10,694 nt of DNA, taken from IMG/VR virus record IMGVR_UViG_2711768038_000002; one strand, given 5' to 3'. Within the stretch, counting starts at the first letter, position 1. Each line of letters begins with the position of its first letter. Below the pieces are notes generated by a model. That model did not search any database. It saw nothing but the letters and a program-made list of their open reading frames with translations, and was not told the DNA's origin. This stretch comes from a virus (taxonomy: Duplodnaviria > Heunggongvirae > Uroviricota > Caudoviricetes). Position numbers and translations under genes: made by a program. Positions 1 through 10,694 of the stretch are shown in pieces.

Positions 1-1158
1 ATGCTCACCGTTAAGCAGATTGAAGCAGCAAAGTCGAAAGAAAAACCATACCGCCTTCTCGATGGTAATGGCCTGTACCTTTATGTCCCTGTATCCGGGA
101 AAAAGGTATGGCAGCTTCGCTACAAGATTGACGGTAAGGAAAAAATACTGACCGTAGGAAAATATCCGCTTATGACTTTGCAGGAGGCAAGGGATAAAGC
201 ATGGACTGCGAGGAAAGACATCTCGGTTGGCATCGATCCGGTAAAGGCGAAAAAGGCTTCGTCTAACAACAATTCATTTAGTGCGATTTACAAGGAATGG
301 TACGAGCACAAGAAGCAAGTCTGGTCAGTAGGCTATGCAACTGAACTTGCCAAAATGTTTGATGACGACATTTTACCCATCATCGGAGGTCTTGAGATTC
401 AGGATATTGAGCCGATGCAACTGCTGGAAGTAATCCGCAGATTTGAAGATCGCGGTGCAATGGAGCGAGCCAACAAAGCCCGCAGAAGATGCGGCGAGGT
501 TTTTCGTTACGCTATTGTCACCGGAAGGGCTAAATATAACCCGGCACCTGACCTTGCAGACGCCATGAAGGGATACCGCAAGAAGAACTTCCCGTTTCTT
601 CCTGCAGACCAGATCCCTGCATTCAACAAAGCACTGGCAACATTTTCAGGAAGTATCGTATCGCTCATTGCGACCAAAGTTTTACGCTACACTGCCCTAA
701 GAACGAAAGAGCTTCGTTCCATGCTATGGAAGAACGTCGATTTTGAAAACAGGATTATCACCATCGACGCCAGTGTGATGAAGGGACGCAAAATTCATGT
801 GGTCCCGATGTCAGACCAGGTGGTTGAACTTCTCACTACGCTAAGCTCAATCACCAAACCAGTATCAGAGTTTGTTTTTGCCGGGCGCAACGATAAGAAG
901 AAGCCAATCTGCGAGAACGCGGTATTGCTTGTGATCAAACAAATCGGCTATGAGGGTCTGGAAAGCGGTCACGGATTCAGGCATGAATTCAGCACGATTA
1001 TGAACGAGCACGAATGGCCCGCTGATGCTATTGAAGTGCAACTGGCACATGCCAACGGCGGTTCTGTGCGTGGAATTTACAACCATGCTCAGTATCTCGA
1101 CAAACGCAGAGAAATGATGCAGTGGTGGGCAGACTGGCTTGATGGGAAGGTTGATTAA
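1..1158 (+). CDS. intS: Tyrosine recombinase / P4-family prophage integrase (IntS-like, argW-targeting type)
   Basis: Uninterrupted 385-aa ORF starting at position 1, stop TAA 1156-1158. C-terminal tyrosine-recombinase signatures are visible (HGFRHEF box with HxxR; GIYNH with the catalytic Tyr candidate). The N-terminus MLTVKQIEAAK...YRLLDGNGLYLYV matches the P4-like integrase arm-binding region. Length and sequence match my recollection of E. coli CPS-53/KplE1 IntS; not verified by search. Confidence 0.9.
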   Translation: MLTVKQIEAAKSKEKPYRLLDGNGLYLYVPVSGKKVWQLRYKIDGKEKILTVGKYPLMTLQEARDKAWTARKDISVGIDPVKAKKASSNNNSFSAIYKEWYEHKKQVWSVGYATELAKMFDDDILPIIGGLEIQDIEPMQLLEVIRRFEDRGAMERANKARRRCGEVFRYAIVTGRAKYNPAPDLADAMKGYRKKNFPFLPADQIPAFNKALATFSGSIVSLIATKVLRYTALRTKELRSMLWKNVDFENRIITIDASVMKGRKIHVVPMSDQVVELLTTLSSITKPVSEFVFAGRNDKKKPICENAVLLVIKQIGYEGLESGHGFRHEFSTIMNEHEWPADAIEVQLAHANGGSVRGIYNHAQYLDKRREMMQWWADWLDGKVD

Positions 1159-1673: not shown

Positions 1674-1700
1674 CCGCACGCTTATCGCGTGCGGTTTTTT
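1674..1700. terminator. Rho-independent terminator between convergent genes (canonical for + strand, weaker for - strand)
   Basis: Perfect 8-bp stem CCGCACGC / GCGTGCGG (1674-1681 and 1687-1694) with loop TTATC, followed on + by TTTTTTATTTTTT. It sits between the stop of the small + ORF (1667) and the stop of the - strand membrane-protein gene (1699-1701). Confidence 0.65.
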
Positions 1701-3066
1701 ATTTTTTAGGTAATATATAGTATATTACCTTATATGAAAAATAGACAAATGATACAGTTATTATATTTTTCAAGAAAATAAATAAAAAGAATTCAAGACT
1801 CTCCCTTGCCATAAAAAATGAAAAAGGCATTGTCATAAGTGCAGCTATTTGTAATACACCAACTCTCCTCATCAATATGATTTTATCAAGAAATCTAAAA
1901 ACAACGCCTGAGATAACATATGAGCACCAGAAAAAATACTTTCCGAAAATAACAAGCGATGACCCAAGCAAAGTTGATGCCATATTCAATCCATTGCTAA
2001 GACCAAGAGCACTCACGGTAAAGTAATATGAGCTATTCATTGTGACAATTGGTTTGTCAGACCATATGAATCTTGGGATAAACCCTGAAAATTGAGTAAA
2101 GAAATAATAAATACCACCAACATTGCGATCATTGCTAAAGTATTTAACAGCTATACTCTGATAATTGATAGGAGATACGCTATCAGCTAAATATCTGACT
2201 ATAATGCCAAAAAGAGAGCCAGACGCTGAAATATCAACATCTGAGTATCTCACTATAGCCATTACACCAATTAGAATTAAGCACACAGAGCCTATGCATA
2301 TTAATTTCAACATGCCAATTAAGCCTCTAGAGTGGCAAATAAGAGCAACAATAAACATTGCCGAAAACATTACATTTCTTGAGCCACCAATAAGTACGTA
2401 ATATGCCATCCCAAATAACAATGACATTATAATTGATTTAACGAATACATACTTATCGTCAGATGTAATTGCATACACTATAACAGCAGAAACAAAAGAT
2501 GACATTATCATTATAATGACACCACTACCAGCATTCCCGCCAAGCTTTAAAGCATAATCATCAGAATTAAAAGATATGCCGTTTATGGCATAAAAAGCCA
2601 TCATCCCAACAAAACTTAAAAACAACGTTGTTCTTACAAATAATTTTGGGCTACCAATAAAATATTTATCAGAAAAAGTTATTTTATTTCTTCCTGCCGC
2701 TGTATGAGAGAATACATAAAACAAAACTATACCAATAAACGACAACGTAGACACATCATTTATATATTGATACGGCATATATTCTGCAGAACTAACTTTT
2801 GCCCCAACTCTAAACGGAAGCGATATATACCCAAAAAAATGAGTAAAAACGAGGAATAACATCCCAACAGATTTGAATGACACGCCATGTTTTTTGAATG
2901 ACACGGCACTTAGATATATTAATATTATGGCATACAACGCAGGTAGCACATAAGTAAAAAATGATTCATAAATATTCATAATATTGTATGTAAAAATGAC
3001 TATTTTTACCCGATCTTTAAAGAAAGTACAGGATGATAGCGCGTTTCTACGCGCCATCATAGTCAC
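1699..3066 (-). CDS. Polytopic inner-membrane protein, putative O-antigen modification enzyme (Wzy-like polymerase candidate); lysogenic-conversion position
   Basis: 455-aa ORF with at least 10 long hydrophobic segments and a roughly 60-aa loop rich in Arg and aromatic residues between TM blocks. Very AT-rich compared with neighbours (by eye). The start ATG (3066-3064) overlaps the tailspike stop TGA (3065-3063) as ATGA; alternative in-frame starts lie near 2979. It occupies the position immediately downstream of the tailspike where P22-like phages carry oac or gtr conversion genes. The family call is inference only. Confidence 0.6.
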
Positions 3067-5246
3067 CTTACAACAAATTTGCCATTGCTAATGTCGTTAA
3101 CTAGTGTTGCCACTATGTTAGCAACATCCTTCGTAGATAGGGTGTTTACGTCTCCACCGCGTAACGCACCGGAATTGGTAAATGGATACTGCTGAGGTTG
3201 TGAGCTATTGGCAAACTGGTTGTTAGCCTCATAACGTTTTGTTGGTACAGGGTTGTACCCAATACTGCCTGTGGTTGTGTCAGGAGCCACGCAGTTCGTA
3301 ATGTTCACTATAGCGGCAGAACCACTACCATTTGTATATATTGGCCTGTTAACTGTCCCGAATGGTTGCACAGCTACCAGTCTGTTAACAATAACACTAT
3401 GTGTGGCTAGTGCCTGTAAATAAGATTCTGCGCTCCCGTTGCACCCCCTCAAGTTCACATTATCAACCTCTATGTGGCGGCAGTTAATGGTGACGATATA
3501 ATGACCATTTTCTGTGTTAGGGTAAGCGCCTACTATGCGAACATTTTTTAATGTTAAATCTGTGGTTGGCACCGCAGCAGGCCCACCGTTGAAAACAAAC
3601 CCTTTTGCACCATTTGCAAGTGCGTGTATCGTAATGCCGTCAAACTCGATGTCGGCAAGATTAGTCGTGGTATTGGCTGAGTTTGCCAAAAAATAAACAG
3701 CCTCAGCAGAGCAACCTGATATCAAGAAGTTAGAAAAACGCATCCTTGTGTTTTCTACCGGATAGAAGCGGCATAACAAACCCTGCGAGCAGTTACGAAT
3801 AACAACGTTATCATAGGATACGTCACTAGCTCCTTCAATTGCGACACCTGCATTCGAACTTTCTACATATAGTCCAGTAACTACTCCATTACGGAAATTC
3901 CCACGAAGCCCGTGGCTTTCACAGTTTTTGATTGTGGCGGCGTTTATGTTAACTCTTGTAATAGCTGTCCCTTCCCCGCTTCCGTTCACAAGGTCGTCTG
4001 ATTGAACACGCAAACCGTTACCGCCAGAGGTATTAATGCTCACATCGTGAATCATAAGATTAAGAGTACGGTTTGGCCGGTGTGATGAGAAGAACAAAGA
4101 TGAGGCCCAAGTGTTTCTGCAACGGATATGATGGACGTGCGCCTCTGTAGGGTCATTGACAATGATCGCCATGCCAGTGCGGTTGCTGCCATCTGGATCT
4201 TGAATTTTCCCACGACCACAATCATGTGAGTACAGATTATCGGCAAGAACCCATCTCCCATAATCCATCGTTACGTTGCTATTCCATGCCCCCTGCAATT
4301 CACACCCTGAAAGCTCAAGTGTACCTGCAGATTGCATGGCCAAACCAACCCCTGGGTCAAATGAAGCATTCTGCCGATAAAAATCAAACAAGAAATTACC
4401 GACAATGCGTATATCATATGGAGTATAGTCAAACTCTTGATTTGATTCGTTCCATGTCCGTGGGGATCTGAGCCATAATTGTCTGGAATCTACCGTCACT
4501 TTTGGCAATAACGGCTTTATGAGGATGTCTCCCTGAATATTAAATATACCTTCTACAGTTACGGGAGAGTAAGCGATCCCGATATTTCCAGATAGTGGAA
4601 GTAGTCTACTAAGTTGAGCGTCATTTTGTGCAATTTTCCAACCAGAATTAACCTCATTAAAAAATGATATTGGGTAAAGTTCAATATTATCATTAATTAC
4701 AGTTGAGTCATAACTGGTAATTGTCAATGGTGATGATAATGGTGTGCTCATCATCATAAGGGCGCCATCAAGCCTAACGAATCTTACACCTTCGGGAATT
4801 AAGTCTCCTATTTTTGCATCAATTCCAATTTTATTAGGATAAACCTCACCACCTAAAAATCCATTCATTCCTCGAAGCCAAGATAGATTTAACATGACTG
4901 ATAACTGATCTGGATCGTACTTCAGCACATTAGGGAAATAGAACTGCTGTGATCCATATGCATCGTACACAGCCATAGAATGCCCTTGTACAGTAACGAA
5001 CTTAGCAATCTGTCCGTTATATACAGGGTAGCCAGCAGCGTTAATAATTATTGGTTGCGAAACGGGAATGTGAGAGCCGTCTTCGTTCTCCACATAAACC
5101 TGAATTTGGTTTTCAGGATTTACCGGGTCCGTGTCAATTTTACCGATATAAATTTTGCCATTGGCTACGGCTTTAAAAGAACGAGCCATAGTGAAGAGTT
5201 GCGAAGGCATACTCACTACAACATTGGCATTTATTGAATCTGTCAT
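3063..5246 (-). CDS. P22-family tailspike protein (conserved N-terminal head-binding domain plus divergent beta-helix receptor-binding/depolymerase domain)
   Basis: 727-aa uninterrupted ORF with GGAG 8 nt upstream of ATG 5246-5244. The first ~110 aa ([59 protein letters not shown]...[17 protein letters not shown]...NVLKYDPDQ) match the P22 gp9 / Sf6 / HK620 tailspike head-binding domain as I recall it. The remainder shows repetitive N/G/V-rich beta-helix-like segments. Confidence 0.9.
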
Positions 5247-5304
5247 TTAATTTGCTCCAGATGCAAGGAATCGCCGCAGCATGGCTACGGTGAATTTTGG
5301 GCAT

Positions 5305-5327
5305 AAAAAAACCCAGCCGAAGCTGGG
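5305..5327 (-). terminator. Rho-independent terminator acting on - strand transcripts, upstream of the tailspike gene
   Basis: Stem CCCAGC (5312-5317) / GCTGGG (5322-5327), loop CGAA, flanked on + by a 7-A run (5305-5311), which is a U-tract on the - strand immediately after the hairpin. Confidence 0.55.
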
Positions 5328-5379
5328 TCGTTGCGTTGGTTATCTGTCAGTAGTTATGCACTGGCTGAAGGATTTGTAC

Positions 5380-5409
5380 AAAAAACCACCTGACGGTGGG
5401 TTAATTTTT
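5380..5409 (-). terminator. Second hairpin terminator candidate (mainly - strand; weak on +)
   Basis: Stem CCACC (5386-5390) / GGTGG (5395-5399), loop TGAC, with a 6-A run upstream on + (U-tract on -) and TTAATTTTT downstream on +. Confidence 0.45.
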
Positions 5410-5427
5410 GCATTTACCTGGGCCATA

Positions 5428-5456
5428 TTGACTACTTATAAAATGAGATCAATATT
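5428..5456 (+). promoter_or_regulatory. Candidate sigma70-like promoter for the small basic protein gene
   Basis: TTGACT at 5428-5433, a 17-nt spacer, then AATATT at 5451-5456, about 35 nt upstream of ATG 5493. Pattern match by eye only. Confidence 0.25.
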
Positions 5457-5492
5457 TAATCGCCCAATAACGGGTGTATGTTGAGGTATATC

Positions 5493-5672
5493 ATGGCGAA
5501 AAAACCAGGTGAAAACACAGGAAAAAACGGCGGAATATACCAAGAAGTTGGCCCACGCGGCGGTAAGAAAGACAATTTTGCCACCGTCAAGGACAACGAA
5601 AGGCTTCCACCAACAACAAAGCCAGGTCATGGCTGGGTATTGGATAAGCGAACTCCAGACAGCAAAAAGTAA
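5493..5672 (+). CDS. Hypothetical small basic Lys/Gly-rich protein, 59 aa
   Basis: ATG 5493 is preceded by GAGG (5483-5486) at 6-nt spacing; the upstream in-frame ATG at 5478 lacks an RBS. Stop TAA 5670-5672 is followed by a hairpin terminator. No family recognised. Confidence 0.45.
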   Translation: MAKKPGENTGKNGGIYQEVGPRGGKKDNFATVKDNERLPPTTKPGHGWVLDKRTPDSKK

Positions 5673-5678
5673 TAATCA

Positions 5679-5700
5679 AGCCGGTTCACTCCGGCTTTTT
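5679..5700. terminator. Hairpin terminator shared by the convergent small-protein (+) and zincin-like (-) genes
   Basis: Stem AGCCGG (5679-5684) / CCGGCT (5691-5696), loop TTCACT, followed on + by TTTTT. The stop codon of the - strand gene (5686-5688) lies in the loop. Confidence 0.5.
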
Positions 5701-6051
5701 GATATGTCGCTCGCAGAACTCAACAAGCCTGCTCATTAAGTAGCAGTAAGTCTCGTTGGCTCTTCCTGGTTCAACATCAACACCTACCCTTGAGCAGATA
5801 TCGAATGCCATGTGAGCGCACTCATGGGCAATAGTAGATAGTTTGCCATTGAACACGCCTATCACATGCAAAACACCATTCTCGCTACTCATTGTATGAG
5901 ACGCTCCGTTGGCGTCCGAGTCATGCACGTCAACGCCAAGTTTTTGATGCAGGCGTTGCCATTCTGGAAAGTCTCTACAAAACACAATTGTACCGCTCTC
6001 AAAGAGCGGAACGAGCATCTTTGGTACGTTTCCAATGTTAACTTTTTTCAT
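5686..6051 (-). CDS. Putative zincin-like metallopeptidase (HEXXH motif; ImmA/IrrE- or SprT-like), 121 aa
   Basis: ATG 6051-6049 with AGGA 4 nt upstream. The protein contains AHECAHMAFD (H-E-x-x-H zinc-binding motif) preceded by a LGVDV...NGKLSTIAHE arrangement resembling ImmA/IrrE-family peptidases. The family call is from motif recall, not search. Confidence 0.55.
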   Translation of the reverse strand: MKKVNIGNVPKMLVPLFESGTIVFCRDFPEWQRLHQKLGVDVHDSDANGASHTMSSENGVLHVIGVFNGKLSTIAHECAHMAFDICSRVGVDVEPGRANETYCYLMSRLVEFCERHIKKPE

Positions 6052-6085
6052 GGTATCCTGCGCAAAACTAAGGAGAGTTAATTAT

Positions 6086-6571
6086 ATGAAAAAATCACTG
6101 TTAATTATCCCGCTTCTGCTGGCTGGGTGCGCAAAAGTAAGCGACTATCAGGCAAGTTGCGAGCAACGCTATCCAAAGCTTAGCGATATGGCTAATTGCC
6201 TTGATGCCAGCTTGAAGAACGACTCTCGCATGGCATCAGCACCAACACCTAAGCTTTATGTCCTTGCTGCGAAGATGCTCGGGCAAGGTGTCGATGAAGG
6301 CAAGATAAGTGACACACAGGCAAGACTTGAACTTCAGAATCTTTATGTTCAATTACAAAGCCAAGAACAAGCACAACAAATAGCACAAAGCCAAGCATTC
6401 CAGCAGGCTTTATTGAATTATCAGGCTGTAAACACAATGCAAGCGATCGAGCAAAAAGCGCGCCAGCCTGTTATAACTCAACCTTACCCAACACGCGTTG
6501 ACACATATACAAACTGCAATTCAGGATTTGGAAACACGGTAACATGCAACAGTAGCAGTAATATAAGATAG
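6086..6571 (+). CDS. Lipoprotein (signal peptide with lipobox LLAG-C), Gln-rich central region; candidate superinfection-exclusion or moron product
   Basis: ATG 6086 is preceded by AGGAGAG (6071-6077). The N-terminus MKKSLLIIPLLLAGCAK is a classical lipoprotein signal peptide with lipobox. The mature part has a Gln/Ala-rich, probably helical segment and several Cys. The ORF-track start at 6035 lacks an RBS and would bury the signal peptide. Confidence 0.7.
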   Translation: MKKSLLIIPLLLAGCAKVSDYQASCEQRYPKLSDMANCLDASLKNDSRMASAPTPKLYVLAAKMLGQGVDEGKISDTQARLELQNLYVQLQSQEQAQQIAQSQAFQQALLNYQAVNTMQAIEQKARQPVITQPYPTRVDTYTNCNSGFGNTVTCNSSSNIR

Positions 6572-6584
6572 TTATATCTTATTT

Positions 6585-8432
6585 TTATTGCTGTTCTGCT
6601 GTAATTTGGCTTGAAAGTATAGGGCGTATCGCATTTGCAGCATTATTTAGCGCTCTTTCATAGGCTGGTGTTCCTGCTTTGGTGTTTGCCAAACGTAAGA
6701 GAGCATTCCTTGCTGCTTTTGACTCATACAAGCGCATCATTGCACCGAAACCAGCCTCAAGCCCCATTGATACGCCAAGAGTCGCAGTTGCGCCAATCGT
6801 CCTTATCCTGTTGGCTTGCGATTGCCCCGTCTGAGTTACTACATTTGCGGTGTCTGACCTTGCTGTTTGCTGTAGAACTTCATGAAGAGAATCAAGCTCT
6901 TTCATGTGCTTTCCAGAAAAAATAGTGTTGTAAATTTCACCGCCTGACTGAGATTTCAGCTTATTAACTTCAGTGATGAACTTGGCTGGAGAGTCACCGG
7001 CCTTTTCCGCTATTTTGCTGACGTAAGCTGCACGCATAGCATCTTTCCCTTTATCATCCAATGCGCTCCAGATTCGTTTCACGTCAGATGGTTTTCTGCT
7101 TAATACAACGGTATTTATAAGTTCAGGACTGGCTTCACTGCTTGCCTTGTTGAGCTTGTTAGCAATGTTTTTATTAAGCACCTTATTATAAACGTTTGCA
7201 TAATCGGAATTTGCTTTAAGGTATTTTGCTGCGTCTGATGCACCGAGGTTTTTAGCAACTGCGTTACGAAGGTCTTTTGACATTGCATTCTCTACCATAT
7301 TGGTAGCTGCTTTTGCCTGGTTGGGGAAGACCATAGCATCTCCCTGAACATTAGATCTAAATGCTGTTCTGTGCTGACGCAAGAGATCAAACGTAACATC
7401 CAAATCAGTTGCAGGGTTAGCTAATTCTTCACGTAGGTTACGCAAGGATGTAAGCAGGCTTTGATTGGCTGAAGTCCCAAGCCGTTCCTGTCTTGCGATC
7501 GCTGCATTCAGAGCATTCATGGTATTTGTGGTATCAACTGCGGCATTACCCATTTTATTGGTGACGTCATTGATAACAGCGCCAGCAGCATCCTTCCGCC
7601 CCCTTAACGTGGTGGTCAGAGATTTCACCACATCATCAGGGTTGTACTCACCAAAACGGTCAAAATAATTGCTTACCAGCTTACTACGCGTTGCATATTG
7701 CTCCGCTCGCTTTAAGCCTGTCCCGAGCAAAGCCCCCTCGGCATCCTGAGTAAGGCCGCGAGTGAAAGCATTTTTCGGCGGGATAACATCAGATGTCATT
7801 GGTGTCACGCCCATCGATTCTGATGTGGCAATTTTCTTCGCCACTTCTGGCGCAATATCACCTTTTATAGCCGTTATTCCACGCCCTATTCCCTTTGCTG
7901 CTGCGGAAAGAACCCCCTGAGCGGCAAGGTTAACTCCGGCATTTTTGGCTGCATTTTGTGCGAAATCGCCTTTCTGATTTGCGGCCTCTGCCAGTGATCC
8001 AATAGCCATGCTTCCTGCCGTTCCAACGCCTGGAACTAAATACCCGCCAATTGTTTCACCGGCTTGCGCGTAAGGGTCGGTCGGTCGATCTACTGGACGA
8101 TAGACATCGTCCAAAACCTTGGGGCCACCAAGCCCCTGGCTGATTGCATTAATCAGACTTGCGCCACCCTGCAATACGTCAAATGGTATGTTTACCAGAC
8201 CACGACCAGCCTGCTCTGCAATTTGCCCTGCACTTTGCCCGCCTGTGAGCCAATCGCCAGCTTGTTGCATCAATGATGGTTCTTCACGTGCTGGTTCATT
8301 ATTGGCCTGATTAACTGTTTGTTGCTGAACAGCCTGACCAGCAAAATACTCATCAATGGCGGTGCCAATATCTTCCGTGCTCGTACCATCAGGGAAGGTA
8401 AATGTCTTACCGTTTGCAGTTACTTTCATCAT
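6585..8432 (-). CDS. P22 gp16-like ejection (DNA-transfer) protein
   Basis: 615-aa ORF. The N-terminus [33 protein letters not shown] matches my recollection of P22 gp16, and the size is close to P22 gp16 (about 609 aa). Start ATG 8432-8430 overlaps the stop TGA 8431-8429 of the upstream gp20-like gene as ATGA. Confidence 0.85.
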
Positions 8433-9896
8433 TCCACCGTAAATTGAATTCCTGATTTTGAGGTATATGATCCGGATTGACTCTGCTGCTGTTGGGTATT
8501 TGCCGGTTGTTGGCTATTGCTCTGTTGTTGACTATTTGCAGCACTTGAAACCACCAAAGCATCATAAACGCGACCAGACTGACCACGTAATGAGTTATAT
8601 TGGCCCTGCATTTTTCGCATTTTTGTTTCAGTAGCAGCCTTGGAATCACCGGGCTGAGGCAGGTACATTTTGGAATACTCCTGCATCTCTGGCAGAGTAA
8701 TTGCTGCACCTGTTTCTGGGCGCAAAATTGCATACAAGGCGTCTCTCGCATTTACCATATATTGCTGCTCCGCTGGTGATAGGCTTAAATTTGCAATAGT
8801 CCCATCACCAAGAGAGCGATTTATTAATGCAACTCGCTTAGGGTCAATGCTTTTACTAAGCTGATTCATTGAGTCCATTGAATCTTTTAATCGCAAAGCA
8901 AATCCTGCCGCCTTCTTGGAACCCTCATTAGCCTTATCTATGATGCTTTGCGCTTGTGGCAAGCTAATTGGTTTAATGCCATCACCAGATATAGGTTGGT
9001 TTAGTTTTCCGGCTTCCTCGCTGCCATCGGTGTAATACTTAGTTACCGAGCCATCAGGATTGGTTTCAACCTTAAGTAATTTCTTAGCATTGGGATTAAT
9101 TCCCGCCGCTGCCGCAAATGCCGCTGCACCATTTGGATCCGCCTTTAACATTTGCGCGTACTGATTGTAATTCTGCATTGCAGCTGTTGGTGCATATGCT
9201 GACGTTAACGCATTTGCTCGGCTAATATCCTGCCCTCTCGCCTGAAGCGCCTCGCCAGCCTGATTGCTGCGAATCGTCTCTGCCAACTCGCCACGCTCAA
9301 TATCCCGACCAGCCATCTTGTCCTGAACATTGAAGTAATCAATCGGACCAAGAGCAGCCATTCCAAGGTGATCAACAAACTCACCAAATCCTGAAGGGTT
9401 CTGCTGATACATCTGAGCAACGCTGTTAGGGTCAACACCGACGCGAGTCAGTTCCTTGGCGTTGTTTTGCAGCCATGATTGCATTGCTTCTGGAGACGAT
9501 GACGCAAGGCGTGCGCCAGCCGCTAAGGTGCCGATAGAATTACGCTGGTCTTCATCAATGAATCCCATGCCTTTACGAACGGATTCAATCTGGTCTGGAT
9601 ATTGAGTAGCCAACTGACGCAAAGCACCGCGATCACCAGACGCATAAGCATTAGCGTACGCCTGCTGAAATTCTTTCTGCCGCTGAGCCTGCTTTTCCTG
9701 CTGAACCCCCCCCCGCAATACCTGAAAGGCCTTGCAAAGCAGTCAGCCCAACATTGTTAGCGCCTGAACGCTCAATATCATTGTTCTGCCTGATAAGCTG
9801 AAGCGTATTGCCGATGTCATTTACGCTCGGAGCGTTTGAGTTGACGCCGCCGATACCAGCCAACAATCCGCCGTTTGTTCCTTGCCAAGTAGCCAT
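8429..9896 (-). pseudogene. P22 gp20-like ejection protein gene interrupted by a frameshift in a homopolymeric tract
   Basis: Two overlapping - strand ORFs in different frames: 9896-9651 ([10 protein letters not shown]..., 81 aa, ATG with a GGGG RBS) and 9718-8429 (429 aa, opening on a TTG codon). They meet at a run of 9 C on + (9706-9714), which is 9 G on the coding strand. Removing one G gives a continuous reading ...[13 protein letters not shown]... of about 489 aa, comparable to P22 gp20. Confidence 0.75.
9706..9714. repeat. Homopolymeric C9 tract (G9 on the - coding strand) at the gp20-like frameshift site
   Basis: Direct count in the sequence: ctgaa ccccccccc gcaata. Confidence 0.9.
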
Positions 9897-9905
9897 GATT
9901 ACCCC

Positions 9906-10184
9906 TTAAAACAACGAGCCAAGCAATCCGATACCAGCACCAATGCCAGCGCCCCAAGGCGTTGATGTTCCCAAAAGGCTGGCAAGACCTGCACCGGCAA
10001 TCGCACCAGACGTGCCGCCGCTAATTGCAGTCTGAAGACTTGATGGTTTATTGGCATTTGCAGCGGCAAGAGCTGCGCTTTGCTGTGCAATGCTGCTCAT
10101 GTTGTTGGCGTACGTCTGCCCGGCGTTTGCCTGACCTTGCAGAGCACCAAGCCCAACGTTTGCCAGATTGTTGTAATTGCTCAT
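9906..10184 (-). CDS. Small Ala/Gly/Asn-rich protein with C-terminal Gly-rich hydrophobic segment; positional equivalent of ejection protein gp7 (possibly 5'-truncated)
   Basis: ATG 10184-10182 (the ORF track extends to a GTG at 10208). Stop TAA 9908-9906 lies 9 nt before the gp20-like start and overlaps its RBS. At 92 aa it is much shorter than P22 gp7 as I recall it (about 229 aa). An in-frame stop lies at 10226-10224, and upstream of it the late operon is absent. Confidence 0.5.
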   Translation of the reverse strand: MSNYNNLANVGLGALQGQANAGQTYANNMSSIAQQSAALAAANANKPSSLQTAISGGTSGAIAGAGLASLLGTSTPWGAGIGAGIGLLGSLF

Positions 10185-10268
10185 CTGGTTTGATAACAAT
10201 CCTCGCACTCGCGGGGATTTCTTTTATCTGAACTCGCTACGGCGGGTTTTGTTTTATGGAGATGATAA

Positions 10269-10458: not shown

Positions 10459-10474
10459 TTGCAGGTTCGATTCC
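10459..10474 (+). other. 16-nt segment identical to the T-arm region of tRNA-Arg (argW): candidate att core or recombination scar
   Basis: TTGCAGGTTCGATTCC matches tRNA-Arg(CCU) ...AATTGCAGGTTCGATTCCTGCAGGGGACACCA, with the tRNA sequence recalled from memory. Identity stops on both sides; the 3' T-stem strand and acceptor end are absent, so this is not a tRNA gene. It lies between the terminator and the excisionase gene. Confidence 0.5.
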
Positions 10475-10493: not shown

Positions 10494-10694
10494 ATGCAAC
10501 ACGAACTACAACCTGATTCACTGGTTGATTTGAAATTCATCATGGCTGATACTGGCTTCGGTAAAACCTTCATCTATGACCGGATTAAGTCCGGCGACCT
10601 GCCAAAAGCCAAAGTTATCCACGGTCGAGCAAGATGGTTATATCGTGACCATTGTGAATTCAAAAATAAGCTCTTAAGCCGCGCCAATGGGTAA
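10494..10694 (+). CDS. torI: Excisionase / recombination directionality factor, AlpA-family winged-helix (TorI-like)
   Basis: 66-aa ORF with GGAGA (10481-10485) upstream of ATG 10494 and stop TAA at 10692-10694. The central FIMADTGFGKTFIYDRIKSGDLPKAKVIHGRARWLYRD fits the AlpA/Xis DNA-binding pattern. Length and sequence match my recollection of KplE1 TorI; not verified. Confidence 0.8.
   Translation: MQHELQPDSLVDLKFIMADTGFGKTFIYDRIKSGDLPKAKVIHGRARWLYRDHCEFKNKLLSRANG

Follow-up and report, generated by a model that had tools for sequence, protein, structure and literature searches.

The reading frame of a gp20-family DNA-ejection gene is interrupted by a run of nine guanines, and the gene resides in a 10.7-kb remnant of a P22/Sf6-like prophage of E. 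coli that is inserted at the tRNA-Arg gene argW (the KplE1/CPS-53 site). This remnant makes up the window, i.e., the whole 10,694-nt stretch of DNA that was analysed. With a probability of about 0.88, replication slippage added one G to a run of eight in a gene that was no longer under selection and that is now a pseudogene. Genuine decay of a defective prophage, one of the readings put forward by the first-pass annotation, is supported by the loss of ~30 kb that includes the N-terminus of gp7, and by an independent nonsense mutation in a sister lineage of the same remnant.

Organization of the argW prophage remnant

The gene order was established from annotated relatives together with a blastn comparison against the whole Sf6 genome (Table 1). 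Small immI-region ORFs are located between the tailspike and gp16 genes. The missing ~30 kb of the P22/Sf6-type genome extend from the 133 N-terminal codons of gp7 round to the gene that neighbours torI. The lost Sf6 equivalents include the gp7 N-terminus, gp14, needle, gp10, gp4, coat, scaffold, portal and terminase as well as the lysis, Q, replication, immunity and early-left genes. The remnant cannot make virions, and it is a cryptic element from which ~75% has been deleted. The junction at 10193-10197 is spanned by no complete RefSeq E. coli genome.

Table 1 Features of the window (coordinates in nt of the 10,694-nt window).
Feature	Position	Strand	Remarks
intS-type integrase	1..1158	+	Adjoins argW just beyond the window
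WzyE-family O-antigen polymerase	1699..3060	-	Holds synonymous SNP 2446 (window T, G8 sub-lineage C)
Tailspike, P22-type head-binding domain, intact	3063..5246	-	
gp16-family ejection protein, intact	6585..8432	-	615 aa (614 aa if started at the second ATG)
ATGA overlap of gp20 stop (TGA) and gp16 start (ATG)	8429..8432	-	
gp20-family (Pfam Inj_translocase) DNA-ejection gene, frameshifted pseudogene	8429..9896	-	With G8 encodes 488 aa
Downstream frame	8429..9718	-	Remaining 425 gp20 codons; mechanically listed as a 429-aa TTG ORF
Q470* site in gp20	8488..8488	-	Sister sub-lineage with G8; G>A (coding strand C>T)
N-terminal fragment ORF, 81 aa	9651..9896	-	Native 1-63, Gly64, 17-aa out-of-frame tail, TAA
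G9 homopolymer	9706..9714	-	Last base of Ala61, Gly62, Gly63 and an extra Gly codon; +1 insertion site relative to the G8 allele
Truncated gp7 gene	9906..10197	-	C-terminal 97 residues only; Pfam P22_gp7 profile 134-230 of 230
Deletion junction	10193..10197	.	Sf6 homology jumps from 9961 (inside gp7) to 18871 (beside gene 19); alignments overlap by 5 nt
torI / Sf6 gene 18-type excisionase (RDF)	10494..10694	+	Last gene before attR

The boundaries of the element can be seen in GCA_001268525.1, which is 100% identical to the window. In this assembly the element lies between the tRNA-Arg(CCT) gene argW and dsdC, and a 21-nt repeat of the 3' end of the argW tRNA follows beyond torI, such that a 10.9-kb element is bounded by argW and the att repeat. 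The 21-nt direct repeats that flank the remnant occupy positions 8936-8956 and 19879-19899 of the GCA_001268525.1 contig, just outside the ends of the window. Besides the att repeat, 16 nt of the argW tRNA sequence (GGAATCGAACCTGCAA) recur without mismatch at ~10459-10474, just upstream of torI.

The argW locus is the KplE1/CPS-53 site with its IntS/TorI recombination module (PMC3509656). KplE1/CPS-53 of E. coli K-12 and the window remnant share the insertion site at tRNA-Arg CCT, between yfdC and dsdC, as well as an intS-type integrase as the first gene, torI as the last gene, both att repeats, a defective state and a length of ~10 kb. In contrast, the cargo differs from what we take to be the K-12 gene set, as the window remnant carries the tailspike, WzyE-family polymerase, gp16, gp20 and partial gp7 of a P22/Sf6-type phage. 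The torI protein matches TORI_ECOLI entries exactly and, with both intS and torI intact, the remnant may be excisable in the manner of KplE1. The wzy gene (1699-3060) occupies the place of the Sf6 O-acetylase, and the retained WzyE-family polymerase may alter the O-antigen of the host.

The G9 tract and the gp20-family gene

The first-pass annotation had placed the split of a gp20-like frame at a run of nine G within 9700-9720. Positions 9706-9714 of the plus strand indeed read C9, i.e., G9 on the coding minus strand, and no other homopolymer among the 10,694 nt of the window exceeds 7 nt. Dinucleotide-preserving shuffles give an expected mean of 0.09 runs of at least eight G per window, and a run of nine (two overlapping matches) appeared in 2 of 200 such shuffles. 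The 81-codon ORF starts with the ATG at 9896 and stops at 9651-9653; gp20 homology resumes in the next frame and continues down to the TGA at 8429-8431. The gene callers used for public assemblies annotate the 429-aa TTG ORF (8429..9718) as such.

Deletion of one G yields 1467 nt, or 488 aa and a stop codon, and the repaired protein is identical, letter for letter, to WP_040073222.1/KIG99991.1. The earlier statement that one G fewer restores a protein of about 489 aa is therefore accurate once the stop codon is counted. The closest intact homologues carry G8 at exactly the position of the 9706-9714 tract. Likewise, the coupling of the downstream gp16-like gene through ATGA, which had also been proposed, corresponds to the overlap found at 8429-8432.

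The repaired protein aligns with the Pfam model PF16928 (Inj_translocase) with an E value of 1.1e-74 and a score of 251 bits, with residues 10-225 covering positions 1-217 of the 218-position profile. G9 shifts the frame after codon 63, leaving no intact full-length ORF for a gp20-family ejection protein, and the break at codon 63/64 falls inside the Inj_translocase domain (residues 10-225). An explanation in terms of a split gene or a domain boundary was rejected because of this location within the Pfam domain. The window copy of gp20 thus belongs to the P22 gp20 family as a pseudogene. No match was obtained when the PDB was searched with the sequence of the repaired protein.

The order of gp7 fragment, gp20 and gp16 is the canonical P22-like order and is the same in Sf6 and in the O104:H4 prophage. 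The likeness to P22 gp20 and Sf6 gp12 comprises a match to the whole PF16928 model, the gp7-gp20-gp16 order and the overlapping stop and start codons. At the nucleotide level, the first 640 nt of the window gp20 gene, encoding the N-terminal part, are ~95% identical to Sf6 gene 12, whereas the C-terminal half is mosaic and unlike both P22 and Sf6. The differences from P22 gp20 and Sf6 gp12 are that the window gene is frameshifted after codon 63 and that the remnant is devoid of head, portal and terminase genes. Ejection proteins are located inside the virion, infectivity depends on them, and they act only as virion components (PMC8954989).

Tract length in copies of the remnant and in homologues

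Many E. coli assemblies contain the same remnant, and these copies hardly differ outside the tract. Among the contigs that were read, intact G8 was seen in nine, G9 in seven, G11 in two, and G8 combined with Q470* in at least five. The comparison of tract length across isolates, which the first-pass annotation had suggested as a check, thus reveals G8, G9 and G11 in otherwise near-identical remnants.

The G8 remnants include GCA_000818985.1, GCA_903981285.1 and the Logan assemblies ERR4507143, SRR15852952, SRR7724767 and ERR11477349; across as much as 10,694 nt, their differences from the window are confined to G8 and the synonymous SNP at 2446. The G9 contigs were located through the 429-aa downstream ORF, which is a product of G9 only and is recorded in seven contigs, including GCA_001268525.1, SRR36072334, SRR22582849 and SRR23198460. 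The SRR23198460 G9 contig occurs in four samples and has gained a further SNP, at position 882 of the window. The 81-aa N-terminal product itself had no exact match, and the public gene calls on G9 contigs list only the 429-aa ORF. The G11 allele, found in GCA_052428175.1 (NCBI) and SRR33822304 (Logan), preserves the frame, adds one Gly and encodes 489 aa; elsewhere the G11 strain equals the window across 21 kb, host flanks included. The Q470* allele encodes a 469-aa product and was found in at least five contigs, namely GCA_028325085.1 and at least four further assemblies. Look-ups for the G6, G7, G10, G12 and G13 products of the remnant returned none, a weak negative as short N-terminal ORFs are often left uncalled. 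The 4-kb Logan contigs ERR14218623, SRR34902450 and SRR34878097 are 100% identical to window positions 5181-9354, and they stop 350-500 nt short of the tract, leaving its length untypable there.

These contigs bear on the possibility of a homopolymer miscall, according to which the strain would truly be G8 (or G11) with an intact ORF. Several platforms are prone to errors in long G runs, tract length alone (G11) separates the closest relative from the window, and G9 is found in no complete RefSeq E. coli genome. Moreover, the G7 (2548876525_000003) and G10 (SRR3578158) copies of an O104:H4-type prophage, seen in single assemblies, could be errors of this kind. Nevertheless, such a miscall is improbable. 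The seven G9 contigs come from one NCBI assembly and from at least three distinct SRA runs that were assembled with a different assembler, and one G9 contig lineage has since diverged by the further SNP at 882. The same pipelines consistently give G8 and G11 in other strains, and comparison of the window with its relatives revealed no other frame-breaking indel. Because the identical length was obtained from different runs and assemblers and was kept in a diverged strain, G9 is an inherited mutation; the sequencing or assembly error that the first-pass annotation had listed first among its alternatives is largely excluded.

The tract was also compared among 124 sampled homologues. It is interrupted in 110 of them, reading GGGGGTGT in 78 and AGGGGTGT in 32, and only four of the 124 have an uninterrupted tract (two G8, one G7, and the G9 of the window, which was counted separately). 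Within IMG/VR, only two contigs have at least seven uninterrupted Gs, and a metagenome collection scanned for at least seven Gs in the tract context contained none. A scan of genome_contigs, which holds one genome per species, recovered a single E. coli contig in which the tract is interrupted. Judging from these sequences, the G8 run is a rare derived allele, with two T>G changes from GGGGGTGT that convert AGVF to AGGV. The homologues are single ORFs of 431-491 aa, contrary to the case, considered earlier, that homologues in other genomes are normally split at the same point.

Tract length is also recorded in other prophages. The O104:H4-type prophage has G8 in 12 of 12 complete genome assemblies. 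Its G7 copy (IMG/VR 2548876525_000003) shows 0 mismatches in 4195 nt and its G10 copy (SRR3578158) shows 2 mismatches in 7467 nt, which puts the copies at 99.9-100% identity to the reference; with a single assembly for each, these may be real variants or platform errors. The unrelated metagenome contig ERZ27235471 has G9 too, as seen in a short-protein homology search that listed mostly truncated or partial proteins and that also brought up the G10 contig SRR3578158. In E. coli ETEC1730 (NZ_CP122832.1), a 21-nt in-frame deletion corresponding to window positions ~9693-9714 has removed the tract region; this shorter 1446-nt gene is common to several pig ETEC genomes and is labelled a partial pseudogene in RefSeq.

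The survey of homologues is pertinent to programmed recoding, in which +1 ribosomal frameshifting on GGG GGG G, or transcriptional slippage that loses one G, would restore full-length gp20. Going by the sequence, tRNA-Gly slipping by +1 at any point of the run would bring back precisely the wild-type AGGVQQ, and some low-level leakiness at such G runs is plausible. However, the homologues are single uninterrupted ORFs, mostly without the run, the immediate parent allele G8 is in frame, and no two-ORF architecture is conserved. A programmed frameshift entails conservation of both the two-frame architecture and the slippery site, and neither was found; because most homologues have the interrupted GGGGGTGT and a single ORF, recoding of this kind is highly improbable. 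To our knowledge, efficient slippage by E. coli RNA polymerase is documented on A/T runs rather than on G/C runs.

The polymorphism among close isolates is what would be expected of a contingency tract, whereby reversible slippage toggles gp20, and gp16 by polarity, to the benefit of the phage or the host. Outside the tract, the remnants differ at no more than one of the 10,694 positions, yet they differ in tract length, and such variation between otherwise identical copies is seen both in the lineage of the window (G8/G9/G11) and in the O104:H4-type prophage (G7/G8/G10). In addition, an in-frame G11 allele exists and the ATGA coupling to gp16 is real. As in the contingency loci of Neisseria, Haemophilus and Campylobacter, a coding poly-G tract varies in length among isolates and toggles the frame. 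In contrast to those loci, the tract is not conserved within the family (78/124 GGGGGTGT and 32/124 AGGGGTGT), the product is neither a host surface protein nor a restriction-modification component, the element itself is defective, and nothing points to fast, reversible switching. An uninterrupted tract is rare, with GGGGGTGT in most of the 124 homologues and two IMG/VR contigs with at least seven Gs, the gp20 product is virion-internal with no cell-autonomous role, and no virion is formed here. The nonsense allele Q470* also segregates, as neutral decay predicts, all 12 of the O104:H4 assemblies hold G8, and the alleles are clonally inherited and unmixed as far as the assemblies show. An adaptive switch is therefore very unlikely. 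Of the earlier suggestion of a slippage-prone tract that gives on/off expression, the mutability stands, given G8, G9 and G11 in otherwise identical copies, whereas functional switching does not, as the tract is absent from most homologues and there is no virion.

A broader form of the same idea is that the uninterrupted tract, arising from GGGGGTGT, is a recurrent hypermutable switch of an essential ejection protein in P22-like prophages, with the lengths of G7-G11 in two prophage lineages as its footprint instead of neutral noise. This is likewise very unlikely. If true, the switch would produce, in a heritable manner, sub-populations of lysogens whose released particles are non-infectious, or it would modulate gp16 by polarity.

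Probable slippage and decay of gp20 in the remnant

The reading that accounts best for the G9 allele is replication slippage in a decaying gene. Slipped-strand mispairing during replication would add one G to the run gcG GGG GGG Gtt. The ribosome would then read Gly64 and 17 wrong residues and halt at 9651, 18 codons past codon 63, and the remaining 425 codons would stay untranslated save for a rare spontaneous +1 slip or reinitiation. Because the remnant cannot build virions, the gene would be free of selection, and the long G run, its most mutable site, would drift in length (G8, G9, G11). We infer that slippage was the mechanism, that the change is neutral and that the gene is not transcribed.

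In E. coli, the indel rate of a homopolymer increases exponentially as the run becomes longer, and G:C runs of 8 bp are hot spots (PMC8510543). The change from G8 to G9 resembles these hot spots in that a G:C run of 8 bp, the site class with the highest rate (PMC8510543), has undergone a +1 indel. As in other slippage pseudogenes of E. coli, length variants are found among near-identical genomes, the sole notable difference being the expansion to G11.

Q470* and G9 constitute two independent disruptions in a clone with few differing positions, which fits a gene that no longer matters. The remaining genes (int, torI, wzy, tailspike and gp16) are intact, as is expected in a recent clone, and the case for decay thus rests on the big deletion and on the two disruptions in one gene. 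Selection for an open frame is formally possible, given that the in-frame G11 exists and that G8 is kept in many strains.

The cluster of gp7 fragment, gp20 and gp16 is probably silent, with the late promoter and the Q region deleted. Upstream of the gp7 fragment, a consensus scan of the minus strand, in itself a weak means of detection, found no sigma-70-like promoter. A polar effect of the frameshift on gp16, raised by the first-pass annotation, is structurally possible by virtue of the ATGA overlap. Because the late promoter and its activator region are deleted, such an effect is probably moot, with no obvious consequence in an element that makes no virions.

The appropriate annotation of the locus is a frameshifted gp20-family pseudogene in a deleted argW remnant, rather than two genes or a sequencing error. 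Frameshifts by homopolymer slippage in cryptic prophages are a well-known form of ordinary decay, and the finding has little importance beyond annotation. The G8/G9/G11 series in otherwise identical DNA is its only mildly interesting point. Tract length (G8/G9/G11), Q470* and SNP 2446 provide handy markers by which sub-lineages of the carrier E. coli clone can be told apart. The series is also a clean natural example of how, once a prophage gene is released from selection, a homopolymer is the first site to break and then keeps changing.
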